A stretch of DNA of 64,000 bases from Candidatus Scatosoma sp. (GTDB lineage: Bacteria; Bacillota; Clostridia; Christensenellales; Borkfalkiaceae), in the NCBI GenBank assembly GCA_045128055.1, contig JBGVRC010000120.1:21133-85132 (forward strand), given 5' to 3'. This document shows positions 5,239-61,994 of the stretch, in pieces. Position 1 is the stretch's first letter, and every line of letters starts with the position of its first letter. A program made the translations under genes and the position numbers. The notes under the pieces were generated by a model, which was not told the origin of the DNA, ran no database searches, and saw nothing but the letters and a program-made list of their open reading frames with translations.

Positions 5239-5865
5239 ATGAATACCATTTTTGTTCTTCTTTTTTTGATTTCCACCTTTTTACTGCTTCTTTTTTCGCC
5301 CACCGCCTTTCTTTCCGCTATGCTGGACGGAGCAAGCAAAGCCGCCCTTTTATGCGTTTCGCTCGTCGCTACCTATTCCGTATGGATGGGGCTTATGAAA
5401 GTATGGGAAGACAGCGGCTTGGCGCGCGGCGTTTCCCGCATTTTAAAACCGATTGCGCGGCGTATTCTAAAAACGGACGACGAAGAAGCCATCGAAACGG
5501 CTTGTATGAGTTTTTCCGTCAATATGCTGGGCATTTCAGGCGCGGCAACCCCGTACGGTATCAAAACCGCGCAGCTTTTAGACAAAACGGAAAACGCGGA
5601 ATACTCTTCCGCTATGTTTTTCGTGCTAAACGCCACTTCCTTGCAAATTTTACCGTCTTCCCTTGTCGCCGTGCGCCTTGCGATGGGCAGCGCCGCCCCC
5701 AACGACATTATCCTGCCCACCCTAATCGTCAGCGTCTTTTCCACCCTTTTGGGTGCTTTGCTCACACGGGTGTTGATAAAACCCCAACCCAAACGAAAAA
5801 CAAGCCAAAAAAAAGACTTCATTTTACATAAAAATATAAAAATGCCGGGGGCAGGTACGCGATGA
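5239..5865 (+). CDS. spmA: spore maturation protein A (nucleoside-recognition domain membrane protein)
   Basis: 208-aa polytopic ORF resembling SpmA; overlaps spmB by ATGA. Confidence 0.8.
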   Translation: MNTIFVLLFLISTFLLLLFSPTAFLSAMLDGASKAALLCVSLVATYSVWMGLMKVWEDSGLARGVSRILKPIARRILKTDDEEAIETACMSFSVNMLGISGAATPYGIKTAQLLDKTENAEYSSAMFFVLNATSLQILPSSLVAVRLAMGSAAPNDIILPTLIVSVFSTLLGALLTRVLIKPQPKRKTSQKKDFILHKNIKMPGAGTR

Positions 5866-5866
5866 A
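5844..5866 (+). repeat. dispersed motif M02 (G-run class)
   Basis: GCCGGGGGCAGGTACGCGATGAA; 15/15; forms the spmA stop / spmB start. Confidence 0.9.
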
Positions 5867-6377
5867 ATTTGTTTTACCTATTATTATCCCCCTTATTTTT
5901 TTACTTTCCTTCGCCTTTGCCGCCATTAGAAAAGTGCGGGTGTACGATTCGTTCGCGGAAGGGGTAAAAGGCGCGATTCCGCTTATTTTATCCATTTTTC
6001 CATACATAGCCGTCATCAGCATTCTTTCTAAATTGTTGGAAGTGAGCGGTTTGGGCGCAAAAATCGCCGATTTTCTATCCCCCGTCTTTCATTTTACGGG
6101 TATCCCCGAAGAAATCGCTCCGCTTCTGCTCGTAAAACCCCTTTCGGGGGGCGGCAGCGTCGCCGTTTTGTCGGAAATTTTAGAAAGGTACGGCGCGGAT
6201 AGCTATATTTCCCGTTGCGCTTGCGTAATCTACGGCGCGTCCGAAACGATTTTTTACGTCGGCGCGGTGTATTTTGCGGGCTTAAAACGCAAAAAGTTAA
6301 ACGTCGCTTTGATAATCGCCGTTCTTTCTTTTCTTGCTTCCGCCATTTTCGCTTGTTTTTTATGTCGTTTTTTATAA
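5862..6377 (+). CDS. spmB: spore maturation protein B
   Basis: 171-aa membrane ORF translationally coupled to spmA. Confidence 0.8.
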   Translation: MKFVLPIIIPLIFLLSFAFAAIRKVRVYDSFAEGVKGAIPLILSIFPYIAVISILSKLLEVSGLGAKIADFLSPVFHFTGIPEEIAPLLLVKPLSGGGSVAVLSEILERYGADSYISRCACVIYGASETIFYVGAVYFAGLKRKKLNVALIIAVLSFLASAIFACFLCRFL

Positions 6378-6474
6378 AACCTTGCTTTTTTATAAAAATT
6401 ATGCTATAATCATAACAAAAAGGGTATTTTATACCCTTTAACCCTAAAAATACCTTTTACAAAGGAGAAATACA

Positions 6475-9900: not shown

Positions 9901-9910
9901 CAATACAGTA

Positions 9911-9938
9911 AAAAGCGGCTCGACAAGACCGCTTTTTC
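9911..9938 (+). terminator. intrinsic terminator
   Basis: AGCGG-loop-CCGCT followed by a T-run after the lipoprotein gene. Confidence 0.6.
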
Positions 9939-10119
9939 TTTGCGATATTCGTTGATGTAAATCATTTTGCGTTTTTGATAAATATTTTTCTTATCCTTGC
10001 GCAAAATTATTGACGAATGGAAAAATTTGTGTTACAATATTAAATGGACAAGAACGGACTTATATTTCGTTTTTTAAATACGTCACTAAATATTATTCAT
10101 ATATTGGAGGAACTTTATT

Positions 10120-11139: not shown

Positions 11140-11177
11140 TTCGTTTTACGAAGTTTCTAAATCATAGCGAAAAAAGA

Positions 11178-11207
11178 AATCTCCGACCTGCGGTCGGAGA
11201 TTTTTTA
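11178..11207 (+). terminator. intrinsic terminator of gap
   Basis: CTCCGACC-TGC-GGTCGGAG followed by T6. Confidence 0.85.
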
Positions 11208-12614: not shown

Positions 12615-12650
12615 ATCCCCTTTGGTTCAATACCAAAGGGGATTTCTTAT
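12615..12650 (+). terminator. intrinsic terminator
   Basis: ATCCCCTTTGG-loop-CCAAAGGGGAT followed by a T-rich run. Confidence 0.75.
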
Positions 12651-12673
12651 TCAACACGTACCTGGTACGCCTG
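12650..12673 (-). repeat. dispersed motif M04 (GTACCTGGTAC class)
   Basis: + strand reads TTCAACACGTACCTGGTACGCCTG; 14/15; intergenic, right after a terminator. Confidence 0.85.
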
Positions 12674-12766
12674 TTTTTATTTTTTACATGATAAAAGACC
12701 GCCCTAAAGGCGGCCTTTATTATATTCTATACAAAACGGTGTAATTAGATATAGATTAAAGTTGCC

Positions 12767-23240: not shown

Positions 23241-23264
23241 TTCATCGCGTACATGGTACGACTA
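23241..23264 (-). repeat. dispersed motif M09 (CATG class)
   Basis: + strand reads TTCATCGCGTACATGGTACGACTA; 15/15; intergenic after a terminator. Confidence 0.9.
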
Positions 23265-24614: not shown

Positions 24615-24636
24615 TATCTTTTCAATGCATCATAAG

Positions 24637-24660
24637 ACCCGCCGCAAGGCGGGTTTTTTG
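24637..24660 (+). terminator. intrinsic terminator
   Basis: ACCCGCC-GCAA-GGCGGGT followed by T6. Confidence 0.8.
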
Positions 24661-24680
24661 TCTTGTACCCATATTATTAT

Positions 24681-24704
24681 TTCAACGCGTACCTGCCCCC
24701 GTCG
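24681..24704 (-). repeat. dispersed motif M10 (G-run class)
   Basis: + strand reads TTCAACGCGTACCTGCCCCCGTCG; 15/15; intergenic. Confidence 0.9.
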
Positions 24705-24711
24705 TTTTTCA

Positions 24712-24735
24712 TTTAACCCGTACCTGGTATGCCCG
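24712..24735 (-). repeat. dispersed motif M11 (CCWGG class)
   Basis: + strand reads TTTAACCCGTACCTGGTATGCCCG; 13/15; in tandem with M10. Confidence 0.7.
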
Positions 24736-26018: not shown

Positions 26019-26879
26019 ATGATAAAAGTAGTTGGTATTAAATTTAAAAACGGCGGGAAGCTGTATTACTTTTCGCCCAAAGCAGGGGACGTGTACGAAC
26101 GGAATATGCCCGTCGTTGTGGAAACTTCGCGCGGTTTGGAATACGCTTGGGTGGCGTATCCCGAAAAAATCGTTTCCGACGACGAAGTGGTACAACCCTT
26201 AAAGCCCGTCATTCGTATCGCCACGCAAAAGGACAAAGAATATTACGCCGCTTGCGAAGCAAAACGCCCGCAAGCTATGCAAATTTGCAGGGAAAAAATA
26301 GCGGCGCGGGGCTTGGAAATGAAGCTTGTTGACTGCGAATACGCTTTTGACGGCAGTAAGATTTCTTTCTTTTTCACGTCCGACAATCGCGTGGATTTCA
26401 GAGAGCTTGTCAAAGATTTGGCTTCCACTTTCCATTCCCGTATCGAGCTTCGCCAAGTGGGTACGCGCGACGAAACCAAGTATTTGGGCGGGCTTGCGCC
26501 CTGCGGCAGAATTTGTTGCTGCGCGGGGAATATGCCCGAATTTAAAAAGGTGAGCGTGAAGATGGCGAAAACGCAGGGTCTTTCCTTGAACCCCGGTAAA
26601 ATCAGCGGGCTTTGCGGTAGGTTGATGTGCTGTTTGAGCTATGAAAACGATTACTATGCCGAAGCCAGCAAGAAAATGCCGAAAATCGGCTCGGAAGTCA
26701 GCACGCTGGAAGGCAAGGGCATCGTCGTGTCCGTCAATATGCTGAAAATGCAGGTAAAAGTGAAGATTGACGATAGAAACGGCGACTGGATTTATAAGGA
26801 TTTCGACGTGGAAGACGTACGCTTTAAAAAGCCTATCAACAGCGACAAAGCGGACGATGACGACAAAGATGATGAATAA
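26019..26879 (+). CDS. yaaT: PSP1-domain stage 0 sporulation protein YaaT/RicT
   Basis: 286 aa; PSP1 core and Cys-rich CGRICCC / CGRLMCCL motifs. Confidence 0.9.
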   Translation: MIKVVGIKFKNGGKLYYFSPKAGDVYERNMPVVVETSRGLEYAWVAYPEKIVSDDEVVQPLKPVIRIATQKDKEYYAACEAKRPQAMQICREKIAARGLEMKLVDCEYAFDGSKISFFFTSDNRVDFRELVKDLASTFHSRIELRQVGTRDETKYLGGLAPCGRICCCAGNMPEFKKVSVKMAKTQGLSLNPGKISGLCGRLMCCLSYENDYYAEASKKMPKIGSEVSTLEGKGIVVSVNMLKMQVKVKIDDRNGDWIYKDFDVEDVRFKKPINSDKADDDDKDDE

Positions 26880-26888
26880 TAACTAAAT

Positions 26889-27067
26889 TTGCCCTTGCGG
26901 GCAAGTGAAGTTTACTTTGTAAGTGAAGTTATCCTTTGGATAGTGAAGTTTTGCCTTTGGCAAAGTAAAAAATAATTTCCATAACTTGCGCACAGCGCAA
27001 ACTTCACTTGTTTATAAACAAACTTCACTGCGTAGCAACTTCACTTTCGCGACAGCGAAAACTTCAC
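26889..27067. repeat. array of 8 distinct mini-hairpins separated by a constant heptamer (GTGAAGT x3, then ACTTCAC x4)
   Basis: Hairpins: TTGCCC/GGGCAA, TTAC/GTAA, TATCC/GGATA, TTTGCC/GGCAAA, TTGCGC/GCGCAA, TTGTTTA/TAAACAA, TGC/GCA, TTTCGC/GCGAAA. GTGAAGT at 26905, 26923, 26943; ACTTCAC at 27001, 27022, 27038, 27061. Confidence 0.9.
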
Positions 27068-28107: not shown

Positions 28108-28806
28108 TTATAATATAGGATTCTTTCGTTCCTTGCCTTGTCCGCGGGGATATTTCGGGGGAGTGGGGCTCGTCTTTTTCACCACCGCCAACACCCGTTC
28201 GCCGTAGTTTTCCGGCAATTCGTATGCATACGCCTTTTCCAGCTTACCGCCCAAAACCTTATACGCCGTTTTCGCTTCGTCGATTTCCGTTTTGTCGCCG
28301 CTCTTGTACGCGATAAAGCTTCCGCCGACCTTGACAAAGGGCATACAGTATTCGCAAAGGGTGTTCATTCTCGCCACCGCGCGCGCCGTTACGCAATCGT
28401 ATTTTTCCCGAAAATTTTTATCCCGCGCCGCGTCTTCCGCGCGAATGTTATAAATATGCACGTTTTGCATATTCAACTTATCCACAACCACTTTCAAAAA
28501 CTCGCATTTTTTCCCCACGCTTTCAAAAAGATCAAAGGATAAATCGTCGCGTAAAATTTTTAAGACCATCGACGGAAAACCCGCGCCCGAGCCGATTTCC
28601 GCCACTTTCGCGTTGGTTTTAAACAAATCCATACCCGCCGCGCTGTCTAAAAAATGCTTGTACGTGACGTCTTTTTCTTCCAAAATCGCCGTCAGATTGT
28701 ATTTTTGATTGTATTCCAAGAGAAAAGCACGAAAAATTTCCAACTTTTCCCGCTTTTCTCCTAAAATCTCTTGTTCGTAAATCGCGTAAATATCTCTCAT
28801 TTCCAT
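28108..28806 (-). CDS. rsmG: 16S rRNA (guanine527-N7)-methyltransferase RsmG/GidB
   Basis: 232 aa; EIGSGAGFPS SAM loop; typical GidB length. Confidence 0.92.
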   Translation of the reverse strand: MEMRDIYAIYEQEILGEKREKLEIFRAFLLEYNQKYNLTAILEEKDVTYKHFLDSAAGMDLFKTNAKVAEIGSGAGFPSMVLKILRDDLSFDLFESVGKKCEFLKVVVDKLNMQNVHIYNIRAEDAARDKNFREKYDCVTARAVARMNTLCEYCMPFVKVGGSFIAYKSGDKTEIDEAKTAYKVLGGKLEKAYAYELPENYGERVLAVVKKTSPTPPKYPRGQGKERKNPIL

Positions 28807-29936: not shown

Positions 29937-31043
29937 ATGAAATTTGTATGTGACGGAATGGTTCTTTCGGACGCGGCGTTTACCGTATGCAAGGCTTGCG
30001 CGGTAAAAACCATCACCCCTGTTTTGGAATGTATCAAGCTCAAAGCGGAAAACGACGGGTTGACCTTGACTGCGTACGACGGCGAAATTTCCATTAAAAA
30101 GAAAATCAACGCGGAAATTATGGAAGAAGGCGAAGTTTGCGTAAACGGCAAAACGTTTGCCGATTTCGTGGGGAAAATTTCTTCCTTTGAAGTCGTTATT
30201 CATACCGAAGAAAACGGTATGTTTATTAAATATGGCGACAGCGAATCCCGTATGCAAATTCTTCCCGCGGACGATTTTCCTCGTATCAATAAATCGTTGG
30301 ACGGCAAGGAGTATTTCGAAATCAAGGAAAGAGATTTAAAAAACTTGATTGCAAAAATCGTATTTTGTTGCGCTACGGACGAAAGCAGACCTATTTTGAA
30401 AGGCACTTTGTTGGAAGCGAAAAACGGAGCTTTGGAATGTACCGCTCTCGACGGGTTTAGAATGGCGTACGGCGCTTGCGAAACGCAGGAAACGAGCGCG
30501 GATATGAAAATCGTTTGCCCGGCAAGAACGCTTTTGGAAATTTCCCGTATGCTCGGCGATGAAGAAAATATCAAGGTTTACGCGGACAAAAATTCCCTTT
30601 CCGTTACGGTAAAGGACACCGTTATCACGTCCCGTTTGTACGCAGGCGAATTTGTAAAAAGAGAAAATATCTATCCCATCGATTTCACCACCTACGTATC
30701 GGTGAACAGAGCGGAGCTTATCGACAGCGTAGAACGCGCTTCCGTTTTGATCCGCGGGGATAAAAACAACCTTATTACCTTTGATATCAAAAACGGTAAA
30801 ATCGTATTGACGGCAAATTCGGACATGGGTAAAGTAGAAGAAAGCGTAGCGGCGAATTTGGACGGTAAGGAACTGAAAATCGCTATGAACGGCAAGTATT
30901 TGTTGGACGCGGTGAAGGCTTTGGAAGAAGACGAAGTGTTGCTTTCCTTCAATACGTCCGTATCCCCTTTCACGCTGGAAAACGCTGCGGAAAAGAAATG
31001 CAAATACTTAATTCTCCCCGTACGTACGGGCGCAGGTCAGTAA
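29937..31043 (+). CDS. dnaN: DNA polymerase III beta sliding clamp
   Basis: 368 aa, three-domain clamp length; MKFVCDG... with PILKGTLLEA, typical of DnaN. Confidence 0.95.
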   Translation: MKFVCDGMVLSDAAFTVCKACAVKTITPVLECIKLKAENDGLTLTAYDGEISIKKKINAEIMEEGEVCVNGKTFADFVGKISSFEVVIHTEENGMFIKYGDSESRMQILPADDFPRINKSLDGKEYFEIKERDLKNLIAKIVFCCATDESRPILKGTLLEAKNGALECTALDGFRMAYGACETQETSADMKIVCPARTLLEISRMLGDEENIKVYADKNSLSVTVKDTVITSRLYAGEFVKRENIYPIDFTTYVSVNRAELIDSVERASVLIRGDKNNLITFDIKNGKIVLTANSDMGKVEESVAANLDGKELKIAMNGKYLLDAVKALEEDEVLLSFNTSVSPFTLENAAEKKCKYLILPVRTGAGQ

Positions 31044-32124: not shown

Positions 32125-32203
32125 TACGTTTTGTAAGATAAAAAAACGGGTATAAGCAATGTAAATAAGATTGCGGCTTTTCGCCGTATTAGTAAGGAAA
32201 ATT

Positions 32204-33721
32204 ATGAATTTTTTTAACTTGTTAGCAAACGTGCAGTTCTTTAACGAATTGCATACAATAGAGCTCGACTTCATCGGCAGATTTATCAAATGGCTGGTGG
32301 CGATTACGGGCAGCGTTGGCGTTGCTATTATTTTATTTTCGCTTGCTTTGAAGCTGGTAACTTTGCCCTTTGACGTATATCAAAGGGTTTCCATGCGCAA
32401 GCAAAATTTGAAAATGAAGCAAAACCAAGAAAGAATGGAAAAACTGCAAAAGCAGTATGCCAACGACAAAGCGACCTACAATCAAAAGGTTACGGAAATG
32501 TATAAGGAAAGCGGAATTTCGATGTTCTCTTCCTGTCTTCCCATGATTTTGTCGATGGTAATTTTCTTTATCGCAATCGGCGCGTTTAACTCTTTCGCGG
32601 CGTATTCCAACGTGAAAAATTATAACACGCTCGTCACTTCGTACAACGAAAAAATCGAAGACTTTGCTTTGGATTTAAATGATAAAGACGCAAACGGCGC
32701 GTACGTTTTAAAAGAAAACAACGTATCCTATCGTATCAGCGACGATAAGCTTTCCGTTATTTACACCGTCAAAGGGGACAGAGAAAACGATTATTTGTAT
32801 TTCGACGCGTACTATACCTTGGCGGAAGGCGAAACGGCGGACAGCTTTGTTTATGATTTTGAAAAAGCAAAAGAGCATATCGCCAACACGGGTACGACGA
32901 TTTTCTACGTGAACGAAGAAAAAATAGACGATAGTATGCTTGCGCAAATGCAAACGATTGCCGAAGCTTTGAAGCGTGAAGCGGAAGAAGAAGGCAAGAC
33001 CTTGACGGACGCGGAAGCTTTGGAAAAAGCAAAGGCGAACTATTTTGAAAGCCAAGCGCAGGACGCGGTTCTTGAAACCTATAAAACGGATTTGAAGAGC
33101 GAAACCAAATTCCTTTGGATTAAGAATATTTGGGTTACGGACGCAAGCTATAAGCACCCCGTATTGAAATATTCCGACTTTGCAAATGAAATTGTAGAAA
33201 GAAAATCCTGCTCCTGTTCGCAGGATACGAGCGTACGTAAAATTTCCGCGTACACGGAAGATGGGTATGAGCTTGTAACGGCGAAAATGGGCGCGCAAAA
33301 GAGCGAAGCGAACGGGTACTTTATCCTTATCGCCCTTTCTATCGGTACGATTTTGTTGCAACAGTTCTTGTCTATGCGTTCGCAAAAGGAACAACAAAAA
33401 TATTCGTCGGTAGACGGTCAAGGCGCGGGCAATCAAAAAATGATGCTCGTTATGATGACGGGTATGTTTGCGATTTTCTCGTTTATGTATTCGTCGGCGT
33501 TCTCTACCTATCTTATCGTCAGCAACGTATTCTCGATGGCGTCCATGTTCGTCATCAATAAAATTGTAGACTCGAAGGACAAGAAAAAGCAAGAAGCGAT
33601 CGTCATTGAAAGAAGCCAAAGCTATAACGCGAAGAGAATCGAAGCGGCGAAGGAAGCGGGCAAGAAAGCTGCGCAAGAAAAGCGCGGCATCGTGGACGAT
33701 AAATCCAAGAAGAAAAAATAA
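32204..33721 (+). CDS. yidC: YidC/Oxa1 membrane insertase, unusually long (505 aa)
   Basis: Start MNFFNLL with AAGGAAA RBS; PMILSMVIFF and later TM blocks of YidC; about 215-aa hydrophilic insert; Lys-rich tail. Confidence 0.85.
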   Translation: MNFFNLLANVQFFNELHTIELDFIGRFIKWLVAITGSVGVAIILFSLALKLVTLPFDVYQRVSMRKQNLKMKQNQERMEKLQKQYANDKATYNQKVTEMYKESGISMFSSCLPMILSMVIFFIAIGAFNSFAAYSNVKNYNTLVTSYNEKIEDFALDLNDKDANGAYVLKENNVSYRISDDKLSVIYTVKGDRENDYLYFDAYYTLAEGETADSFVYDFEKAKEHIANTGTTIFYVNEEKIDDSMLAQMQTIAEALKREAEEEGKTLTDAEALEKAKANYFESQAQDAVLETYKTDLKSETKFLWIKNIWVTDASYKHPVLKYSDFANEIVERKSCSCSQDTSVRKISAYTEDGYELVTAKMGAQKSEANGYFILIALSIGTILLQQFLSMRSQKEQQKYSSVDGQGAGNQKMMLVMMTGMFAIFSFMYSSAFSTYLIVSNVFSMASMFVINKIVDSKDKKKQEAIVIERSQSYNAKRIEAAKEAGKKAAQEKRGIVDDKSKKKK

Positions 33722-33768: not shown

Positions 33769-34701
33769 ATGAACTACACGGAATTTACGGGTAAGACGGT
33801 TGACGACGCCGTCGAAAAAGGGCTGAAAGAGCTTGGTATCAGCAGAGAAAACGCGGATATCAGAGTGTTGGAAGAAGGCAAGAAAAAGTTGTTCGGTTCG
33901 GTGAAGGCTCGCGTGGAAATCGCTGTAAAATGCGAAGAAAAAGCGGAAAAATGCTGCTGTGATAAAGCGGCAAAGACGGAAAACAGCGCAAAGGACGGCG
34001 CTACGGACGGCGAAAGAACGGTGGAATTTTTGGAAGGCTTGTTTGAGCTGTTGAATATCACCGCTTGTACGGAGCTTGTTTCGGAAGGTGAAAAGGTGGA
34101 AATCAACGTTACGGCGGCGAACACCACTTCTATCATCGGTAAGCACGGCGCTATGTTGGACGCGATTCAAACGCTTGCGGGCGCGGTTGCGAACACGGGC
34201 AGGGACGAATATAAGCGCGTGGTTGTGGATTGCGAAAACTATCGCGAAAACCGTGAAGCGACCCTTAACAAATTGTCCGAAAACTTGGCGCAAAAAGCTA
34301 TTCGCTTGGGCAAGAAAATCAAGCTTGAACCCATGAACCCCTACGAAAGAAGAATTATTCACGCGGCTTTGTCGGAAAGAGAAGGCGTTTCGACGGTAAG
34401 CGAAGGCAAAGAACCTAACCGTTATATCGTGATTATTCCCGACAACGTAGGAGATCCTGACGCGCCTGCTATCCCCGCAAGAAACGAACGCGGCGGTAGA
34501 AACGGCGGCAGAAATTTCAATCGTGGCGGTAGAAACAACGGCCGCGGCGGGTATAACAGAAACGGTGGTAAGAGCTTTGATAAAAAGCCTTATAACCGTG
34601 ATAGAAAATCGTCTTCGAGCTCTTCGACGGGCGGTACGACGTTGAAGCCGAATAATGATTTCTTTGGTATTTTCCTTGGAAACAGCAACAAAGACGAATA
34701 A
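33769..34701 (+). CDS. jag: Jag/KhpB RNA-binding protein (Jag_N, KH, R3H) with RGG-rich tail
   Basis: 310 aa; IIGKHGAMLDAIQ KH motif, ERRIIHAAL R3H motif; tail RGGRNGGRNFNRGGRNNGRGGYNRNGG. Confidence 0.85.
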   Translation: MNYTEFTGKTVDDAVEKGLKELGISRENADIRVLEEGKKKLFGSVKARVEIAVKCEEKAEKCCCDKAAKTENSAKDGATDGERTVEFLEGLFELLNITACTELVSEGEKVEINVTAANTTSIIGKHGAMLDAIQTLAGAVANTGRDEYKRVVVDCENYRENREATLNKLSENLAQKAIRLGKKIKLEPMNPYERRIIHAALSEREGVSTVSEGKEPNRYIVIIPDNVGDPDAPAIPARNERGGRNGGRNFNRGGRNNGRGGYNRNGGKSFDKKPYNRDRKSSSSSSTGGTTLKPNNDFFGIFLGNSNKDE

Positions 34702-39983: not shown

Positions 39984-41705
39984 ATGCCGCAGGACGCCTT
40001 TCATATCAAAAGACTTACCGCCGAGCTGCGGGATTTTCTCGTCGGTGGGAAGATAAACCGCATTTCCCAAGTCAACAAAGACGAGCTTACCCTTATTATA
40101 TACACCGGAAAAAGCACAATTAAACTCATTTTAAGCGCAAATGCGTCAAATGCTCGCGTTTGTTTGTCTTTAACGGAAAAAGAGCCCGCCCCCGTTGCGC
40201 CGAATTTTTGTATGTTGCTTAGAAAACACCTGCAAGGCGCGGAGATTTTGGACGTTCGGCAACACGAGTTCGAGCGTATCATTGAAATCGATTTCCATTG
40301 CACCACCGATTTTTCGGAGAGCAAGCGCACCTTGCATTGCGAGCTGATGGGGAAATACTCCAACGTGATTTTGACGGAAAACGGGGTGATTTTGGGCGCG
40401 TTGAAAACGACGGCTTTGGAAGACAATTCCCGTCGGATTTTCCTTTCGGGCGCGAAGTATTCCTACCCCCCTGCGCAGGACAAATTAAGCATTTTGGACG
40501 GGGCAGGTATGCGTTCACGCTTGGAAAGTCGTTTTTTGGGTTGTATGGAAAGCTTGGATGAAGAAGCCCTTGCGTTCTTTATTTTCGAAAACGTTTCGGG
40601 GTTGGCTTTGCCTACGGCAAGAGAAATCGTTTTGCGGGCGAAAAAGCAAGCGGGAAGCCTTGCGTTGACCCTTTCTCCGTCGTCGAAAGCGCCGATTTGG
40701 GAGTTTATCAAGGAGTTTTGCTTAAACGAGCCTTGCGTTCCTTGCGTAAAGGTGGAAAAGGGCGAATACGTGGACTTTTTTGCCTTTTGGGTAGACGGCG
40801 GCGTAGAAATGCCGTCGCTTTGTAAGGCGGAAGACGATTTTTTCACCCGTCGGGAAGGGAAAAAGGATTTTGAAAACAAAAAGCGCAAGCTGGAAAACAC
40901 GGCGCGCGCTTTGAAAAAGAAACAAACGAAAAAGTTGCAGGATACCTTGGAACGGTTGAAGGACGCGGAAAAAGCGGAAGAATACCGCATAAAAGGCGAG
41001 CTGTTGACGGCGAATTTATACCGCGTGGAAAAGGGCTCGATCGGCGTAGAGCTGGAAAACTGGTACGAAGACGGCTGTCCGCGCGTCAAAATTGCGTTGG
41101 ACGCGACCCTGTCCCCTGCAAAAAACGCGCAACGGTATTTTAAGACGTACAATAAATACAAGCGCGCGAAAGAAGTTTTGTTGCCGATGTTGGAGAGTGA
41201 AAAAGCGGAAATTGAGTACACGGACAGCGTGCTTTGTTCGATTTTGCTTGCGGAAACCGCGGAAGATTTAAAGGAAATCGAAGCGGAGCTTATCGAGCTT
41301 GGATTGCTTCGCGCGCCTGCTTTGCGGGCGGGGGCAAAGCGCAAGGAAATTGTCACGCCGTTTAGAGAATACGAGTTTGACGGGGTAAAAATTTACGCAG
41401 GACGCAACAATTTACAAAACGATAGGTTGCTTCGTTTGGCTGACCCCGACGATATTTGGCTGCACACGCAAAAATACCATTCTTCGCACGTAATTATTGC
41501 CATTCGTGGGGGGCAGGTACGCGATGAACTGCTTTTATATGCGGCGGAAATATGCGCGTATTATTCGGACGCGCAAGGCGGCGACAAAATCCCCGTCGAT
41601 TACTGTCCAAGAAAATTTGTCAAAAAGCCGAGCAAAAGCAAAGCGGGTTTTGTCACCTATACCAACTATAAAACGGTGCTGGTTACGCCAAACGCGCATA
41701 AATAA
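39984..41705 (+). CDS. rqcH: NFACT-family ribosome quality control protein RqcH (FbpA-like)
   Basis: 573 aa; NFACT-N start (LTAELRDFLVGGKINRISQ) and C-terminal DUF814 region (WLHTQKYHSSHVII). Confidence 0.88.
   Translation: MPQDAFHIKRLTAELRDFLVGGKINRISQVNKDELTLIIYTGKSTIKLILSANASNARVCLSLTEKEPAPVAPNFCMLLRKHLQGAEILDVRQHEFERIIEIDFHCTTDFSESKRTLHCELMGKYSNVILTENGVILGALKTTALEDNSRRIFLSGAKYSYPPAQDKLSILDGAGMRSRLESRFLGCMESLDEEALAFFIFENVSGLALPTAREIVLRAKKQAGSLALTLSPSSKAPIWEFIKEFCLNEPCVPCVKVEKGEYVDFFAFWVDGGVEMPSLCKAEDDFFTRREGKKDFENKKRKLENTARALKKKQTKKLQDTLERLKDAEKAEEYRIKGELLTANLYRVEKGSIGVELENWYEDGCPRVKIALDATLSPAKNAQRYFKTYNKYKRAKEVLLPMLESEKAEIEYTDSVLCSILLAETAEDLKEIEAELIELGLLRAPALRAGAKRKEIVTPFREYEFDGVKIYAGRNNLQNDRLLRLADPDDIWLHTQKYHSSHVIIAIRGGQVRDELLLYAAEICAYYSDAQGGDKIPVDYCPRKFVKKPSKSKAGFVTYTNYKTVLVTPNAHK
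40496..40518 (+). repeat. dispersed motif M14 (G-run class)
   Basis: GGACGGGGCAGGTATGCGTTCAC; 13/15; sense in rqcH (DGAGMRS). Confidence 0.75.
41505..41528 (+). repeat. dispersed motif M15 (G-run class)
   Basis: CGTGGGGGGCAGGTACGCGATGAA; 15/15; sense in rqcH (RGGQVRDE). Confidence 0.9.
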
Positions 41706-49255: not shown

Positions 49256-50227
49256 TTAAGGCAAATATACGTCTTTTTCAACCATTTCTCGTATTGGGGT
49301 GTACGGAGAAGGGGCTTTTTCGAACAAAGCGGCGAGTTTGTTTTGGGGTAAATTGCAAAGGTGGCGCTCTTTTTCGTCGTAAATTTCAAGCACCAAATAG
49401 CTGCCGCGGGATAAAAACCGAAAAACGTCTTTTACGGGGCAGCTTGCCAAAACGGCGACGCGGCGTATCTCTATCCCCCGTTTTAGCGGTTGATTTTGCG
49501 CGAAATCGATGCGGGAGTAGACGGCGGCTTTGTCCTTGTTGCCCAAAAACCCCGCAAAGAGAAACACGGAGAACACGAGCAGGCTGAAATTTGGATTTTT
49601 TTGAACGCACGAAACAAGAAAAAAGCCCGATAGGCAAAGGGAAAAAGCCAAGGTTAGAAAACGGCAAAATTTTTCCGCTTTTTCTTCTGCCAAGGTGACG
49701 TCCGCGTGTTTTTTCGATAGCATTTTCGCGAGCGAGCATTTTAAAATTCTGCCCCCGTCCAAGGGGTAGGCGGGCAGTAAATTTACAATCGCGATAGCGA
49801 GCGAAGAATGGAAAGCTACGTCCGTGAACGCGTACATGGTAGGGACAAACCACCACAAAGCGACGAAAAATACGGCGGTTATAAAATTGCAAAGCGGGCC
49901 GCAAAGCGCGACGATAATTTCGTCTTTGAGAGAAATCCCCCTTAAATCCCCGTCGATAACCGCACCAAAGGGCATAAGTACGACGCGGTTGAGTTTATAG
50001 CCTAATTTGGCGGCGGCGTAGGCGTGCGCGAGCTCGTGCTGAATGGCGACGAGAGCGGAGAGAAAGAATAAAAACAACTCCCCCGTGAAGGCGTACCAAA
50101 CTCCGACCAGCCAAAAGAGCGGATGGACGCGAAAAAGGCGGGTTTTTCTTTTTTTGGGATAAGAAAAAGAGCGGTTTTGCCGCCCGTTTTCTCGTCTTGA
50201 TGGTTTGTTGTTTTGAAATGCGCGCAT
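49256..50227 (-). CDS. spoIVFB: M50 site-2 protease, SpoIVFB-like
   Basis: HELAHA zinc motif and NLLPAYPLDGGR motif; ATG overlaps the upstream stop as TAATG; the 92 N-terminal codons in the ORF track were rejected. Confidence 0.75.
   Translation of the reverse strand: MRAFQNNKPSRRENGRQNRSFSYPKKRKTRLFRVHPLFWLVGVWYAFTGELFLFFLSALVAIQHELAHAYAAAKLGYKLNRVVLMPFGAVIDGDLRGISLKDEIIVALCGPLCNFITAVFFVALWWFVPTMYAFTDVAFHSSLAIAIVNLLPAYPLDGGRILKCSLAKMLSKKHADVTLAEEKAEKFCRFLTLAFSLCLSGFFLVSCVQKNPNFSLLVFSVFLFAGFLGNKDKAAVYSRIDFAQNQPLKRGIEIRRVAVLASCPVKDVFRFLSRGSYLVLEIYDEKERHLCNLPQNKLAALFEKAPSPYTPIREMVEKDVYLP
49824..49847 (-). repeat. dispersed motif M18 (CATG class)
   Basis: - strand reads TGTCCCTACCATGTACGCGTTCAC; 14/15; sense in the spoIVFB-like gene. 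Confidence 0.8.
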
Positions 50228-51129
50228 TATTCCACCCACGCAAGGGAATTTTCCGCTGTAATTTGATAGCAGTTGAGCAAAACGCCGCCCGAATACATCG
50301 TCATTTGCACTTCCGTTTCCCCCGTTGTATACCCGACGGGCACGTTGCTTTTTACTTCGTCGCCCACTTGATAATATATATGGCTGAGCCCGCTGATAAT
50401 CCCCGTAAAAGAGTCGGAGTGGTTGATTTTTAAGGTGTATGTGCCGTCCGCGTTTTGGTACGCTTCGCTCACCGTGCCTTCGACCGCAGGATAGACGCAG
50501 CAATCGTCTTTAAAGGAAAGAATACCTGCGGCGGAAAGGGAAAGCTCTGCGTCGGAAAGCTCGGATACCACGGGCGAGAGCTTGAAATCGGAGTACGAGC
50601 GGTTGTCGACGGTGGCAACCGTTGCGTTGGGGTTGTTCATCGCGCGGAAAAAGGTGTTTACCGCGCTGTTGGGTAAAAATACGTTGGTCAAAAAGATAGC
50701 GCCGCAAAGCGCGCAGGCGATCGCGAACTCTGTGCCAAGCGTGACGCGGACGGCTTTTTGCGCCCGCGTTTCTTCGTTCATCGCGTACCTGCCCCCTTCA
50801 TTTTCTTTATAATCGAACGCATATTCTTCTTCAAAGGCGGCTTTGCGTTCTTGCTCGTCGGCAAAAAGTCGAACGGTGTCGATGCGGTCGGGAACGGCGT
50901 CGAAGGAAATAGAGCCTTCGCTGTTCGCGCCTTCCGCAAATGCGTCCGCGTCCACGGAAAGGGCGGTTTGCGTTTCTTCCACGCGGTTGTTCACCTGCCG
51001 TATCACGCTGTCTTTTAAGGGTGCGGTTTGTTCTAAGCGCGCTTTTTTACGGCGGCTTTTCTTGCGGATAATATTGACGGTGGATACAGGGATTTCTAAC
51101 ATTTCGGCGTATTCTATTTCTTCGTGCAT
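50227..51129 (-). CDS. spoIVFA: SpoIVFA-like membrane protein with degenerate M23/LytM domain
   Basis: 300 aa; one TM; C-terminal LytM-like beta domain; translationally coupled to the M50 protease. Confidence 0.6.
   Translation of the reverse strand: MHEEIEYAEMLEIPVSTVNIIRKKSRRKKARLEQTAPLKDSVIRQVNNRVEETQTALSVDADAFAEGANSEGSISFDAVPDRIDTVRLFADEQERKAAFEEEYAFDYKENEGGRYAMNEETRAQKAVRVTLGTEFAIACALCGAIFLTNVFLPNSAVNTFFRAMNNPNATVATVDNRSYSDFKLSPVVSELSDAELSLSAAGILSFKDDCCVYPAVEGTVSEAYQNADGTYTLKINHSDSFTGIISGLSHIYYQVGDEVKSNVPVGYTTGETEVQMTMYSGGVLLNCYQITAENSLAWVE
50777..50800 (-). repeat. dispersed motif M19 (G-run class)
   Basis: - strand reads TGAAGGGGGCAGGTACGCGATGAA; 15/15; sense in the spoIVFA-like gene (EGGRYAMN). 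Confidence 0.9.
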
Positions 51130-54669: not shown

Positions 54670-54693
54670 TTCAACGCGTACCTGGTACGGTCA
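54670..54693 (-). repeat. dispersed motif M22 (GTACCTGGTAC class)
   Basis: + strand reads TTCAACGCGTACCTGGTACGGTCA; 15/15; 5 nt after the lrp/asnC stop. Confidence 0.9.
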
Positions 54694-54714
54694 TTTTGAC
54701 GAAAGGACACGATT

Positions 54715-55884
54715 ATGCGTGATTTTGTAAACAAAAAAACCAAGCTTATCCAGCCGAGCGGTATCCGAAAATTTTTCGATATCGTATCGAGCACGAAGGA
54801 CGCCATTTCTCTTGGTGTGGGCGAGCCTGATTTCGTCACGCCTTGGAAGGTGCGTTCGGCTGCGATAACGTCTTTGCAAAGGGGGTATACGCAATATACG
54901 GGCAACCGCGGTATCCCCGCTTTGTTGGAATTGATTTCTCGGTATCTTTCCGAGCGGTTTGGCTTGGAATACGACCCCAAACATATCCTTGTTACCGTGG
55001 GCGGCAGCGAAGCGATTGACTTGGCGCTCCGTGCGTGTGTGGAAAGCGGCGACGAAGTGCTTATCCCCGACCCTGCCTACGTGTCTTACTCCCCTTTGGT
55101 TGCTCTGGCGGACGGCTTGCCCGTGCATGTGGAATGTAAAGAAGAAGACAATTTTGTATTAAAGCCCGAATATTTGGAAAAGGTGATTACGCCAAAAACC
55201 AAGGCGATTATTCTCACCTATCCCAACAACCCCACGGGCGCGATTATGACAAAGGAAGAATTGCAAGCGATTGCGGAAGTGTTTATCCGTCACGATTTGC
55301 TTGTGATTACGGACGAAATCTACGCGGAGCTTACGTACGGGAAAAAGCACGCTTCGATTGCGGCTTTGCCCGGTATGAAAGAGCGTACGGTGTATATCAG
55401 CGGTTTTTCCAAGGCGTTTGCGATGACGGGTTGGCGGTTGGGCTACGTATGCGCGCCCAAGGAAATTGACGAAGCGATGTTTAAAATTCATCAATACGGG
55501 ATTATGTGCGCGCCGATTATGTCTCAGCACGCAGCGATGGAAGCGCTCCGCGACGGATTTTCCGACGGGTTTGCGACGGTGGAAGAAATGCGGGATTCGT
55601 ATAATAAACGCCGTAAATTCGTACTCCACTCTCTTTCGGAAATCGGAATGGACTGTTTTGAACCGCAGGGCGCGTTTTACGCCTTTCCGTCCGTGAAAAA
55701 GACGGGGATGAACGGCGAAGAGTTTGCCAACGGGTTGCTGGCGGCGCAAAAGGTGGCGGTTGTCCCCGGCAGCGCGTTTGGGGATTTTGGCAGCGACAAC
55801 GTCCGTCTTTCCTACGCGACGAGTATGACGGCTTTGTCCGAAGCGTTTGATAGAACGTCGGCTTTTTTACAGCAAAGCAAATAA
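54715..55884 (+). CDS. class I/II pyridoxal-phosphate aminotransferase
   Basis: 389 aa; SGFSKAFAMTGWRLGY PLP-lysine motif. Confidence 0.9.
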   Translation: MRDFVNKKTKLIQPSGIRKFFDIVSSTKDAISLGVGEPDFVTPWKVRSAAITSLQRGYTQYTGNRGIPALLELISRYLSERFGLEYDPKHILVTVGGSEAIDLALRACVESGDEVLIPDPAYVSYSPLVALADGLPVHVECKEEDNFVLKPEYLEKVITPKTKAIILTYPNNPTGAIMTKEELQAIAEVFIRHDLLVITDEIYAELTYGKKHASIAALPGMKERTVYISGFSKAFAMTGWRLGYVCAPKEIDEAMFKIHQYGIMCAPIMSQHAAMEALRDGFSDGFATVEEMRDSYNKRRKFVLHSLSEIGMDCFEPQGAFYAFPSVKKTGMNGEEFANGLLAAQKVAVVPGSAFGDFGSDNVRLSYATSMTALSEAFDRTSAFLQQSK

Positions 55885-56010: not shown

Positions 56011-56026
56011 AAGGAACGTAAATCAA

Positions 56027-56088: not shown

Positions 56089-56165
56089 CACGCACTTTTT
56101 TACCCCAAACGGGTGAAAAGTGAAGAAATTTCCTTAAAAACAGCTTGCGGGATAGGAGGAATCAA

Positions 56166-56636: not shown

Positions 56637-56731
56637 AAAATTTACGAAACGGAGCGGATTAAAGGCTTAAAAAAGCTTGGATTGTAAGAAAAAACGCTTC
56701 GTAAAGAGAAAGATAAAAACGGAGATTGATT

Positions 56732-58243: not shown

Positions 58244-58307
58244 AAACGATTTTTTCGTATAAGCCAAGCATTTATACGGAGCTTTTTCGTATAAATCGGA
58301 GAAAATT

Positions 58308-59339: not shown

Positions 59340-59390
59340 CGAAAAGAAACGGTTTAACCGTTTCTTTCCTTATTAAACGGGAAAAAGAGT

Positions 59391-60716
59391 ATGTTGCGTG
59401 AGATTTTAACGAAAAAAGAAATTTTAAAAAATTGCAAAATTTTTCGGATGCTTGCTACGCAAGCGGAAAAGGAACACGCGTCTTTTCACACGCCCGGGCA
59501 TAAGGTACACGGCTTTGACATCACCGAGCTGTCCTATTCGGACAATCTTTCCAGTCCCAAGGGCTGCATTTTGGAAGCGGAAAGGGACGTAGCGGAAATT
59601 CTTGGCGCGCGCAGAAGTTTTCTTTTGACGGACGGCAGCACTTGCGGTATTTTGTCTATGCTGTACGCGGCAAAGCAGCTCGGTGCGAAAAATATCGCCT
59701 TTTGCGAAAGCACCCATAAAAGTGTTTTCAACGGTTGCGCGGCGCTGGGCTTGACCCCGCTTGTCTATACGTCGTCAAAACGGGAAGAAATCCCGTTTGC
59801 CCCTACCATGTCCGTGTTGAGCGAGAAAAATGGTGACATTTTTGCCGCAGCGGACGCGATTTTATTTACGTCGCCCGACTATTACGGAAACGTAGCCGAT
59901 TTGCGCGGCGCAAGGGAATTTTGCGACAAGAACGGTAAAATTTTGCTTGTGGACGGCGCGCACGGCGGGCATTTACATTTTGAAAAGGAACTGCACGCGG
60001 GTAGCTATGCGGATATGTGGGTGGACGGCGTGCATAAGAGCCTGCCTGCTTTGACGCAGGGCGCGATCGTATCGGCAAAAAGCGAAAAATTTGCCCAAGC
60101 CTTGCAAAAGGGCGTGGATATTTTTCGCACCACCAGCCCGTCTTATCCGATTATGGCGTCTGTGGAATACGCGGTGAAATATCCCCGTAAAGTTACCTTG
60201 GAAAAACGAGTAAACTTGTTTAAAAAGAGATACGCGCGTATTTATCAAAACGACGATTGGACAAAGCTTTGCGCGCGGTTTGGTAAGCACGCCTTTCAAG
60301 TGGAAAAAATCTTGGAAGAAGAAGGGATTTTTGCGGAGTTTTGCGACGGGAACGTATTGATGTTTTATTTATCCCCTGCGACGAGAATGCAGGATTTTGA
60401 TAGATTAAAAACCCGTTTGACCGAGCTGTTTGTTCAATTCCCCGATTATGAGCCCAAAAAGAGCAAAAAAGAGAATGAACTCGACCCTGCCCCCCTTGTT
60501 TTTGATAAAAATGCGGAAACGGAGTGGGTGGATATGGACGGAGCGGAAGGCAGAATTTGCGCGAATAACTGCGGGTTGTTTCCCCCGTGTACGCCGCTCA
60601 TTTTGCAGGGCGAAAGGATAGAAAAAGAAAAGCTGCGGCTAATGCGGCAGGCGAACAACCTATTCGGTGTTCAAGACGGCAAAATTTTGGTGTTAAAAAA
60701 CAAGGATAAGGAATAA
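59391..60716 (+). CDS. Orn/Lys/Arg decarboxylase-family PLP enzyme (YaaO-like)
   Basis: 441 aa; HTPGHK start region and VDGVHKSLPALTQGA PLP-lysine motif; upstream of tmk as yaaO is in B. subtilis. Confidence 0.8.
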   Translation: MLREILTKKEILKNCKIFRMLATQAEKEHASFHTPGHKVHGFDITELSYSDNLSSPKGCILEAERDVAEILGARRSFLLTDGSTCGILSMLYAAKQLGAKNIAFCESTHKSVFNGCAALGLTPLVYTSSKREEIPFAPTMSVLSEKNGDIFAAADAILFTSPDYYGNVADLRGAREFCDKNGKILLVDGAHGGHLHFEKELHAGSYADMWVDGVHKSLPALTQGAIVSAKSEKFAQALQKGVDIFRTTSPSYPIMASVEYAVKYPRKVTLEKRVNLFKKRYARIYQNDDWTKLCARFGKHAFQVEKILEEEGIFAEFCDGNVLMFYLSPATRMQDFDRLKTRLTELFVQFPDYEPKKSKKENELDPAPLVFDKNAETEWVDMDGAEGRICANNCGLFPPCTPLILQGERIEKEKLRLMRQANNLFGVQDGKILVLKNKDKE

Positions 60717-60719
60717 ATT

Positions 60720-61349
60720 ATGGAAAAACGCGGAAAATTTATTACTTTTGAAGGTTGCGAAGGTTGTGGAAAGAGCACGCAGGTGCGCCTTTTTAATGAA
60801 TATTTGGCAAAGAAAGGCATACCGCACATTTTCACGCGTGAGCCCGGCGGGGAAAAGATTTCGGAAGAAATCCGCCGCATTTTACTCGACGCGAATAACG
60901 CGGAAATGACAAGCGAATGCGAAGCCTTGCTTTACGCCGCTTCGCGCGTACAGCATTTAAACGATAGAGTAGAGCCTGCATTGGCGGCTGGGAAGATAGT
61001 CGTTTGCGACAGATACGTCGATTCTTCGCTCGCCTACCAAGGCTATGGCCGTGGGCTTGGCGTGGAGTTTGTCAGCGGCGTAAACGCGTACGCTTTGCAA
61101 AACTATATGCCCGACGTGACGATTTTTATCGATCTTTCCCCCGAAGCGGCGTTTAAAAGAAAGCACGGCGCGGACGAAAACGATAGACTGGAACAGGCGG
61201 GAATGCCCTTCCATCAAAGGGTTTACGACGGGTTTAAGAAGCTTGCGGCGGCGTACCCGAATCGTTACGTCTGCGTAGACGGCAATCAAACGCCTGATGA
61301 AATTTTTGCGGAAGTTTTGGCGGTTTTACAGGAAAGAAACTGCTTATAA
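60720..61349 (+). CDS. tmk: thymidylate kinase
   Basis: 209 aa; FEGCEGCGKST P-loop and DRY motif. Confidence 0.95.
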   Translation: MEKRGKFITFEGCEGCGKSTQVRLFNEYLAKKGIPHIFTREPGGEKISEEIRRILLDANNAEMTSECEALLYAASRVQHLNDRVEPALAAGKIVVCDRYVDSSLAYQGYGRGLGVEFVSGVNAYALQNYMPDVTIFIDLSPEAAFKRKHGADENDRLEQAGMPFHQRVYDGFKKLAAAYPNRYVCVDGNQTPDEIFAEVLAVLQERNCL

Positions 61350-61358
61350 AGGATAGAT

Positions 61359-61994
61359 ATGACGGTTTTAGAAATTGTTTTAATCGGCGTGGCGCTTGCG
61401 ATGGACGCGTGCGCCGTAGCGATGACGGACGGAATGACCGATTCGAAAATGCCCTTTTGGAAGGTGCTGCGTATCGGTGTGTTCTTTGGGTTTTTCCAGT
61501 TCGCTATGCCCGTAATCGGGTATTTTATCACGGCGTTGATCGCGGACGTATTTTTGGATACTTTCCAACATATTTCCGCGTGGATTTCCTTTGCCTTGCT
61601 TGCCTTTTTGGGTGGGAAAATGCTGTTTGAATGTATCAGAGAAAAAATCAAGGAAAAACGCGAGAAGGGTGAAACGGACGGGGCAGGTACGTGTTCATGC
61701 TCCGCTTGTCAGCCGCAAACGGGGGTGTGGAAGCTCACGGTACAAGCGATTGCTACGTCTATTGACGCGTTGGCTGTGGGCGTAACCTTGCAGATGGCGG
61801 CAATCAATAAGGATTTGGCGCTTGGCGTATGGGGCGCGACGGGCGTAATCGGCGTGGTGACGCTTGGCTTGGCAATCGGCGCGGTGTATATAGGAAAGCT
61901 TGTCGGGAACAAGCTCGCGGACAAGGCGGGTATCGTCGGCGGGGTTGTCTTGCTGGGTATCGGCTTGAAGATTTTAATAGAGAGCTTTTTATAG
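61359..61994 (+). CDS. mntP: manganese efflux pump MntP
   Basis: 211 aa; duplicated DAxAV motifs (LAMDACAVAM, SIDALAVGV). Confidence 0.85.
   Translation: MTVLEIVLIGVALAMDACAVAMTDGMTDSKMPFWKVLRIGVFFGFFQFAMPVIGYFITALIADVFLDTFQHISAWISFALLAFLGGKMLFECIREKIKEKREKGETDGAGTCSCSACQPQTGVWKLTVQAIATSIDALAVGVTLQMAAINKDLALGVWGATGVIGVVTLGLAIGAVYIGKLVGNKLADKAGIVGGVVLLGIGLKILIESFL
61676..61698 (+). repeat. dispersed motif M23 (G-run class)
   Basis: GGACGGGGCAGGTACGTGTTCAT; 13/15; sense in the mntP central loop (DGAGTCS). Confidence 0.75.

Follow-up and report, generated by a model that had tools for sequence, protein, structure and literature searches.

An oriented 27-bp DNA word with helically phased flanks recurs in genes and spacers of a gut Clostridia lineage and may mark an architectural site of the chromosome

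The 64-kb stretch of Candidatus Scatosoma DNA analysed here (contig JBGVRC010000120.1; "the window" denotes this whole stretch) carries, both inside genes and between them, repeated copies of a G-rich word with the 11-nt core GGGGCAGGTAC. What could keep the same nucleotide word in place in different genes, in all reading frames and in non-coding DNA? The answer that we prefer, tentatively and with a probability somewhat short of even, is that each copy may be the sequence-specific core of an architectural or topological site that acts at the level of the DNA. This reading is carried by a helical phasing of the flanking base composition and by an orientation that follows transcription.

With at most one mismatch, GGGGCAGGTAC was matched 12 times in the 64-kb window compared to 0.39 matches expected, and none of 100 shuffles reached 12. 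A position-weight profile, trained on copies from other genomes and on none from the window, returned 15 window matches of at least 10 bits compared to 0.03 expected. Eleven of them are sense in genes, one is antisense in a gene and three are intergenic, which corresponds to a density of about one copy per 4-6 kb. The word has roughly the form aaaATGACG-GGGGCAGGTAC-GCGATGAAa in the window, and the logo of 179 copies from the clade reads AAA (positions -8 to -6), n, G, A, n, G, GGGGCAGGTAC, G-c-G-t-T-G-A-A. The full asymmetric word thus comprises 27 bp, AAAnGAnG-GGGGCAGGTAC-GcG-tTGAA, and its core splits into GGGGC-A-GGTAC. The coordinates and sequences of a first-pass annotation of this DNA, which places each start 4 nt before the 11-mer core, proved correct, but its list of copies was incomplete: among the 15 matches, the profile adds an antisense copy (60493, minus strand) and intergenic copies at 24699, 12668 and 54688 (all minus strand).

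The word belongs to a clade. A scan of species-representative genomes with GGGGCAGGTACGNGWTSAA returned at least 112 stretches, and 102 of those listed come from metagenome-assembled genomes (MAGs) labelled Candidatus Scatosoma, Clostridia, Clostridiales or Eubacteriales and obtained from human, chicken and ruminant guts; the 10 listed matches scattered in unrelated phyla are chance. A single match was found in viral contigs, and a phage-borne word was rejected on this ground. Our clade sample consists of the 102 listed loci, which are 8-kb blocks, plus the window; the loci were found via the motif and many of the MAGs are related. Genes were called with a codon model that we trained iteratively (86% coding). 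The sample contains 141 copies after de-duplication, of which 67 lie in spacers or at gene boundaries, 61 sense in genes and 13 antisense in genes; with 74 of the 141 inside open reading frames (ORFs), the word is not restricted to extragenic DNA.

On both sides of the copies, A/T-rich and G/C-rich stretches alternate, with a Fourier amplitude at periods of 11-12.5 bp that lies at z = 15-22 relative to random anchors in the same loci. The best-fitting period is 11.7 bp for the left flank, 11.6 bp for the right flank and 11.65 bp overall. The oscillations of A and T coincide in phase and match in amplitude, as do those of G and C, which renders the flank signal strand-symmetric; the two phased arms are, in addition, mirror images around core position +5, the central A in GGGGC-A-GGTAC. 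Taken individually, 96% of the 141 de-duplicated copies fit this dyad template compared to 50% of controls. The phasing decays outwards and can be followed for about 115 bp in either direction, about 200 bp in all, with amplitudes of 0.052, 0.052 and 0.064 around intergenic, sense-coding and antisense-coding copies, respectively. Nine copies of the window alone already give z = 4.5. When coding flanks were split by codon position, the amplitude was highest at third positions (0.068, z = 12), followed by first (0.051) and second positions (0.035). Control words such as GGGGC, GGAGGT and GTACGCG showed no such periodicity in their flanks; composition or a genome-wide periodicity could therefore be rejected as the source of the signal, which far exceeds the genome's own autocorrelation. 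RNA hairpin arrays do not explain it either, since the flanks of coding copies fold barely below shuffles that preserve W (A/T) and S (G/C), with a mean z of about -0.3. A helical phasing that is strand- and dyad-symmetric and that takes up synonymous sites first points to a constraint on the DNA duplex, i.e. on its bending or wrapping, rather than to an RNA signal.

The core itself is not palindromic according to the logo, and a second arm that would allow a hairpin was seen, by eye, only at the loci L001, L071 and L079 of the clade sample. In two intergenic window copies (12650..12676 and 54670..54696), however, GGGGCAGGTAC is replaced by the palindromic core GTACC-A-GGTAC (GTACCAGGTAC), followed by the same type of tail (GTGTTGAA or GCGTTGAA). 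The centre of this palindrome falls on the core position that is also the dyad of the flank phasing. From their sequence, these copies hint that the binder has two-fold symmetry even though its usual site is asymmetric. A further stretch, CGTACATGGTACG at 23248-23260 (plus strand), looks akin to the GTACCAGGTAC variant.

The second property of the word is its orientation. All nine coding copies listed in the first-pass annotation do lie on the sense strand of their genes. Its suggestion that copies are restricted to this strand does not hold in absolute form: the window contains the antisense copy 60493 (minus strand), and the clade has 61 sense compared to 13 antisense copies in genes. The proposed test of motif orientation against gene strand, run here on the clade sample, thus confirmed a sense bias (61:13, p = 1.4e-8) but not exclusivity, antisense copies making up about 18% of the coding copies and being conserved between species. 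In the window, 11 of 12 in-gene copies follow the gene strand. The same bias exists outside genes, where 44 copies in co-directional spacers are co-oriented with the genes compared to 8 in the opposite orientation (p = 4e-7). Overall, about 82-85% of the copies in transcribed DNA point along transcription. Antisense spacer copies may lie behind a terminator more often than sense copies (3 of 8 compared to 8 of 44).

A replication-polar word such as Chi, KOPS (FtsK-orienting polar sequences) or SRS (SpoIIIE recognition sequences) could show such a bias merely because genes and replication are co-oriented, and gene strand is indeed locally uniform, the majority strand per 8 kb holding on average 86% of the coding bases in the sampled loci. 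The two orientations can be told apart in host genes that lie on the local minority strand; these contain 10 sense copies and 1 antisense copy. They can also be told apart in the window, whose GC skew changes sign at about 28-32 kb, with a cumulative minimum near 28 kb. Since the switch lies at gidB (28108-28806, minus), dnaN (29937-31043, plus), yidC (32171-33721, plus) and jag/khpB (33769-34701, plus), the region is origin-proximal, and 28-32 kb is probably the replication-origin region; a DnaA-type ORF was not found beside dnaN among the scanned ORFs. Relative to the fork direction predicted from this switch, the 15 window copies split into 7 co-oriented and 8 opposite. The 7:8 split, together with the 10:1 ratio on the minority strand, rejects an explanation of the Chi/KOPS/SRS type, to which we assign next to no probability. 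Such words share with the present one that they are over-represented, oriented and recognised by DNA machines, but they are oriented by replication. Transcription, not replication, sets the orientation of the word described here.

The block from 24 to 36 kb has a lower G+C content (0.40-0.41) and contains no motif copy besides 24681..24707. The window also contains GGCAGGG-containing words, mostly GGGCAGGG, at 430, 4648, 14492, 16256 and 60493 (minus) and at 34196 (plus), some of which are diverged copies of the word. We take these words to be KOPS-like; with respect to the skew switch, four minus-strand words lie on its left and one plus-strand word on its right, with one exception, and these numbers are too small to judge.

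In the clade sample, spacers hold 44% of the copies compared to 14% expected. Divergent regions, which contain promoters only, hold 1 copy compared to 11.5 expected (p = 1e-4), and a sigma-70-type promoter was rejected because of this depletion.

How could a DNA-level site account for these properties? The helical repeat of DNA is about 10.5 bp. Bends that recur every 11.65 bp on such a helix rotate by about 39 degrees per step, so that each arm of the phased DNA, about 100 bp long, would be pre-bent into approximately one turn of a right-handed superhelix. This geometry would suit a positive toroidal wrap around a protein, as on gyrase, or a negatively supercoiled plectoneme that has the core at its tip and the flanks as its arms. 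The most concrete candidate would be a strong site for a type II topoisomerase (gyrase), or a site of a nucleoid-associated protein that is recruited by the core. The candidate sequence-specific factor, maybe the type II topoisomerase itself or a nucleoid protein by which the topoisomerase is recruited or organised, would wrap the DNA within transcription units or at their ends. Selection on the nucleotides maintains the word, and copies are gained and decay by substitution where the sequence tolerates it: in loops of proteins, between cistrons and in 3' untranslated regions. The orientation bias would then likely reflect that the opposite orientation is harmful in transcribed DNA: the reversed word could act as a polar roadblock to RNA polymerase, could place a C-rich, anti-Shine-Dalgarno-like or Rho-attracting stretch into the mRNA, or could base-pair with the many transcripts that carry a sense copy.

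A described parallel is the gyrase motif of E. coli, which is symmetric about the cleavage site and has a central segment of 36 bp (-16 to +19) and flanks of periodic GC% with a period of 10.75 bp over 130 bp overall (PMC6379681). The present site resembles this motif and the strong gyrase site of phage Mu in its dyad architecture, in a central segment of about 36-41 bp and in its periodic A/T versus G/C flanks. The differences count against our preferred reading, as do several other points. Described gyrase motifs are degenerate and symmetric, with a period of 10.75 bp over 130 bp, whereas here a conserved asymmetric 27-mer is flanked by phasing of 11.65 bp over about 200 bp. The mechanism and the binding factor are wholly predicted from the nucleotide sequence, and a DNA-level cause for the transcription-linked orientation, including the 44:8 ratio in non-coding DNA, is likewise a deduction. 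Convergent regions hold 11 copies compared to 11.0 expected from their length and thus show no enrichment. The clade counts come from a sample that is not fully independent and not genome-wide. Finally, many copies fit closely to stop codons and to starts at position +14, which would suit a role in RNA or translation too.

The last point leads to the alternative of an RNA-level cis element, i.e. a transcribed word that a protein or a small RNA would recognise, or a Shine-Dalgarno-like ribosome tether at stop/start junctions that would control coupling, stability or processing. Such an element would explain why the sense bias in genes and spacers follows the gene rather than the replichore, and why copies are nearly absent from divergent regions, which are not transcribed. 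It would also fit the position of intergenic copies: in 32 of the 55 with a co-oriented upstream gene, the stop codon overlaps the motif or ends at most 10 nt before the core, in 18 copies the ATG or TTG at +14 is the predicted start of the downstream gene, and spmB starts at the word in three species. It does not predict a flank signal that is strand- and dyad-symmetric, as strong around antisense copies as around others and strongest at synonymous positions, nor antisense copies that are conserved between species. An Rfam scan of the window gave no match at any copy, excess folding in the flanks of coding copies is weak, the copies with a TTC tail lack a start codon, and genes beside spacer copies have ordinary ribosome-binding sites of the AAAGGAGG type. 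The first-pass annotation had hinted at an RNA-level or transcription-coupled role; with phasing equal in sense, antisense and intergenic copies and strongest at third positions, RNA is not the best fit, and we regard this explanation as rather unlikely.

Where the copies of the window lie is relevant for the reading frames and tails discussed below. The 15 profile matches are the following:

412..438, minus strand: ksgA/rsmA-like ORF, diverged copy (GGGGCAGGGTC GCGGTGAA), sense, 18.0 bits
5840..5866, plus strand: spmA/spmB junction, phase 0 in spmA, 41.6 bits
9339..9365, plus strand: gene of a 1141-aa lipoprotein-type phosphoesterase, between Pfam domains, read as DGGRYEIK, sense, phase 1, 34.9 bits
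12650..12676, minus strand: intergenic, palindromic core (GTACCAGGTAC GTGTTGAA), between two terminator-like hairpins of convergent genes, 10.3 bits
14474..14500, minus strand: methyltransferase gene, diverged copy (GGGGCAGGGAC GAGTTGAA), sense, 27.7 bits
15418..15444, plus strand: gene of a GerAA-type protein, variable linker, codon 72, sense, phase 1, 44.8 bits
20707..20733, plus strand: gene of YyaC (DUF1256), N-terminal extension, TTC tail, sense, phase 0, 43.9 bits
24681..24707, minus strand: intergenic, TTG tail, antisense to both plus-strand neighbours, 45.9 bits
40492..40518, plus strand: gene of RqcH, core GGGGCAGGTAT, tail GCGTTCAC, sense, phase 0, 24.5 bits
41502..41528, plus strand: gene of RqcH, NFACT-R domain, read as RGGQVRDE, sense, phase 2, 36.3 bits
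50777..50803, minus strand: gene of a SpoIVFA-like M23 protein, ahead of the hydrophobic segment, sense, phase 1, 45.1 bits
53492..53518, minus strand: polysaccharide deacetylase gene, gap between N-terminal hydrophobic segment and catalytic domain, TTC tail, sense, phase 0, 39.4 bits
54670..54696, minus strand: intergenic, palindromic core (GTACCAGGTAC GCGTTGAA CGCGT), antisense to two flanking plus-strand genes, 17.7 bits
60475..60501 (core 60483-60493), minus strand: diverged antisense copy (GGGGCAGGGTC GAGTTCAT) in a plus-strand Orn/Lys/Arg decarboxylase gene, 20.3 bits
61672..61698, plus strand: gene of MntP, central loop, TTC tail, sense, phase 0, 29.4 bits

The intergenic copy at 24681..24707 is flanked by a terminator-like hairpin (24634-24657) on one side and by promoter-like hexamers ahead of holB on the other, and the one at 54670..54696 lies just upstream of the ribosome-binding site of the gene at 54715. 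On the minus strand of 24660-24730, the former can be read as an 11-codon mini-ORF, ATG AAA AAC GAC GGG GGC AGG TAC GCG TTG AAA TAA (MKNDGGRYALK), and TTG-AAA-stop also follows several spacer copies in other loci. A conserved upstream mini-ORF (MTGAGTR-stop) was rejected, as the ATG at -6 to -4 is not conserved across the clade.

As the first-pass annotation had described, the nine coding copies are read in three phases and encode the peptides that it quoted, in ORFs backed by Pfam or by the codon model; the reverse complement of the word, read directly, contains no stop in any frame. It is also correct that the four internal phase-0 copies carry TTC, and that the copy with its core at 5848 keeps ATGA, the TGA of which is the stop of spmA. 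From this, a stop-avoiding variant had been proposed. The association with the frame recurs in the clade, TTC being found in 14 of 22 copies in phase 0 compared to 3 of 39 in the others (Fisher p = 6e-6), but it is not a separate line of evidence: it is forced, because a phase-0 copy in an open ORF cannot read TGA at this place. What the association does show is that the word is otherwise left intact where a single base has to differ. ATG, which had been taken for the canonical tail, is not the prevalent form, since TTG is commonest across the clade (GCGTTGAA), with T at 64% and G at 72% at the two variable positions.

In sense orientation, the word offers AGG and, 6 nt later, ATG or TTG, and it also contains TGA. 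At 5840..5866, the spmA frame runs through the core and ends with the TGA in the tail, and spmB begins with the ATG that overlaps this stop; L027 and L072 have the same arrangement at the junction. Some copies resemble a Shine-Dalgarno sequence or an ATGA overlap, in that AGG, a 6-nt spacer and ATG/TTG lead to a real gene, or in that TGA serves as stop. This arrangement is present for spmB and at 18 predicted junctions and is absent for internal and TTC copies. It differs from a true Shine-Dalgarno element in that most copies are gene-internal or have no ORF after them, and that TTC variants provide no start codon. The word as canonical ribosome-binding site of the clade was rejected, given the ordinary sites in front of the genes beside spacer copies. 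At L001, L071 and L079, perfect inverted pairs of the form GGGGCAGGTAcGCG-TTSAA-CGCgTACCTGCCCC (14-bp stem) followed by a T run constitute terminator hairpins; this intrinsic-terminator form is limited to these inverted pairs and is taken by none of the coding copies of the window. Co-option of the word at some copies is shown by these predicted elements: as ribosome-binding site and start (spmB), as stop (spmA) and as terminator hairpin (inverted pairs).

Next to the sites themselves, orthologous sequences illustrate how copies evolve. The loci L019, L027, L044, L051, L053, L063, L072, L077 and L107 are syntenic with parts of the window at 67-85% nucleotide identity. Over the 53 alignments that cover a copy in a further locus, identity is 87% in the 27-bp motif compared to 76% in the flanks (p = 3e-6), the motif value being somewhat inflated because the partner loci were themselves found via the motif; 16 partners in this set have at least four mismatches to the motif. 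The claim of the first-pass annotation that selection acts on the nucleotide word itself is supported in that the word is kept in three frames and in non-coding DNA and is more conserved than its flanks.

Individual sites differ in their conservation. In RqcH, the site at 40500 is conserved in L063 and L053, with the DNA just downstream diverged past alignment, and the site at 41510 is exact in L053 whereas L063 reads GACGGCAAGCAGGTGCAAGACGAA at the same columns, with substitutions and no indel. (In both loci, rqcH adjoins the genes on the L21 side, and the region corresponding to 24.7-38 kb of the window, with holB, gidB, dnaN, yidC, jag and clpX, is arranged differently; a lookup of the exact RqcH protein of the window gave no record.) The MntP orthologue in L019 reads GGGGCATGTAC at the aligned position, and the antisense copy at 60483-60493 (minus strand) aligns without indel to an exact copy, GGGGCAGGTACGCGTTGAA, in L019. 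Apparent counterparts, identified from coordinates, exist for the YyaC copy in L107, for the copy at 24681..24707 in L051 and for the deacetylase copy in L044; the GerAA gene of L107 has an apparent copy at the matching place, as judged from BLAST and match coordinates, with no alignment across the motif.

At sites where a copy is present in one locus and absent in another, the motif contained no indels (four alignments). Since orthologous sites differ by substitution without indel, copies are not insertions of mobile elements. These comparisons show that the places stay fixed while substitutions create and erase the copies, which are subject to purifying selection or to drive. A derivation from remnants of a mobile repeat, i.e. 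a small hairpin similar to repetitive extragenic palindromic (REP) sequences or miniature inverted-repeat transposable elements (MITE) that would have been spread by a RAYT-like transposase, is consequently very unlikely for the word. The few perfect hairpins with a 14-bp stem would fit such an origin, as would the REP-like location in transcribed spacers and a copy number that is probably similar to that of REP (PMC6379681). The second arm, however, exists in three loci only, about half of the copies lie in conserved ORFs, and antisense copies hold the motif's own TTG polarity (11 TTG compared to 3 TTC).

Could the word be a DNA uptake sequence, comparable to the uptake signal sequences (USS) of Pasteurellaceae and the DNA uptake sequences (DUS) of Neisseria? 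In this case, a competence receptor would prefer the word, and biased uptake and recombination would spread it by molecular drive to whatever sites tolerate it. The likeness is considerable. It comprises a clade-specific core of 9-12 nt that is over-represented both within and outside genes, a consensus that extends beyond this core, A/T tracts in helical phase, and further hundreds of copies in all frames and in spacers, with intergenic enrichment, that arise by substitution in place, as well as inverted-pair terminators (here at L001, L071 and L079) and one in-gene orientation that is commoner than the other. The near absence from viral contigs would fit, too. In N. meningitidis, uptake sequences have an in-gene orientation of 245 versus 123, are biased to gene termini and have led to ORFs annotated as starting at the word (PMC2346458). 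On the other hand, uptake does not predict the 44:8 bias in non-coding co-directional spacers, where it would call for roughly equal orientations, nor a dyad-symmetric phasing over about 100 bp on both sides that has full amplitude in genes; USS have only two A/T tracts, on one side. The density in the window is lower than the approximately one copy per kb of USS/DUS, and the organism is a Gram-positive spore-former, as indicated by spmAB, the gerA operon, spoIVFA/FB and yyaC in the window, which are typical of a Clostridium-type organism. We know of no sequence-specific DNA uptake in any Gram-positive bacterium. For these reasons, we consider an uptake sequence improbable.

Two further families of dispersed words deserve comparison. 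The REP sequences, including BIME-2 (a bacterial interspersed mosaic element), form a dispersed intergenic family and are preferred gyrase sites (PMC6379681). They share with the present word the location in transcribed spacers and the near absence from divergent regions (1 compared to 11.5 expected here), but they are palindromic and extragenic, whereas the present word is mostly non-palindromic and lies in genes in about half of the cases. HIP1 of cyanobacteria is an 8-bp palindrome that is abundant in coding and non-coding DNA and has no established function. Like it, the present word is clade-wide and apparently kept by selection on nucleotides; as a palindrome, HIP1 has no orientation, and phased flanks are not reported for it. 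Altogether, the word behaves like the dispersed clade-specific genomic words (USS/DUS, REP/BIME, HIP1, Chi/KOPS) yet lacks a defining feature of each one that could be tested. These comparisons and the phased flanks suggest a protein-wrapped or supercoil-shaping chromosome site that would match no described family.

A bolder form of the preferred reading, which we regard as doubtful though worth stating, is an undescribed class of chromosomal site: its core would lie in genes and spacers, it would position about 200 bp of DNA in a wrap of right-handed sense or at a crossing of the supercoil, transcription would determine its polarity, and codon and amino-acid choice would be shaped for about 100 bp on either side. 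Such a site could serve to load gyrase or a nucleoid protein, or could be tuned to the A-like DNA that is bound by small acid-soluble proteins (SASP) in spores. According to the literature, SASP prefer GC-rich DNA and impose an A-like conformation; the literature on SASP-bound DNA yielded no value of the helical repeat to set against 11.65 bp. We see a considerable chance that the word represents a novel kind of element, a wrapping site oriented by transcription whose influence on coding sequence extends over about 200 bp.

If the architectural reading is true, chromosome architecture would impose a strong long-range constraint within genes, where third-position and amino-acid-coding bases would be phased for about 100 bp per side, and we would, to our knowledge, have here the first case of a dispersed DNA word that takes its orientation from transcription and not from replication. 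In Candidatus Scatosoma and its relatives, a gut lineage that is abundant but uncultured, the word would also offer a sequence by which its binding factor could be sought. On the practical side, gene callers will misplace starts at the embedded ATG/TTG, and the word can be used as a lineage marker in metagenomes.

Several resemblances of the word were examined and dismissed. A site in ksgA at 871-881 (minus strand) was rejected as a member of the family because its tail is mismatched; we take it for a coincidence of the encoded GxGxG motif that binds S-adenosylmethionine (SAM). This motif of ksgA/rsmA, EIGCGAGTLT, is encoded by GGAGCAGGTAC in the window and by an exact GGGGCAGGTAC in the minus-strand match of L027, in both cases without the tail. 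The likeness of TGACGGGGGCAGGTAC to the complement of 16S rRNA around position 1400 was taken as chance, the 5' bases not being conserved across the clade, and a likeness to sigma-54 or ops-RfaH elements, judged by eye only, was dismissed with regard to spacing and copy number. A literature search for the word string on both strands returned only irrelevant matches.

Two observations concern other parts of the window. A scan for tRNA genes in the window found none, and the sole Rfam match, which is unrelated to the word, is a Gut-1 RNA at 26880-26954 (plus strand; 59.9 bits, E = 2e-9) directly after a PSP1/YaaT-like gene (26019-26879). The ORF of an M50 peptidase (SpoIVFB-like, 49256-50503, minus strand, TTG start) overlaps the SpoIVFA-like ORF (50227-51129, minus strand) by 277 nt, and the true start of SpoIVFB probably lies further downstream than the mechanical ORF start.

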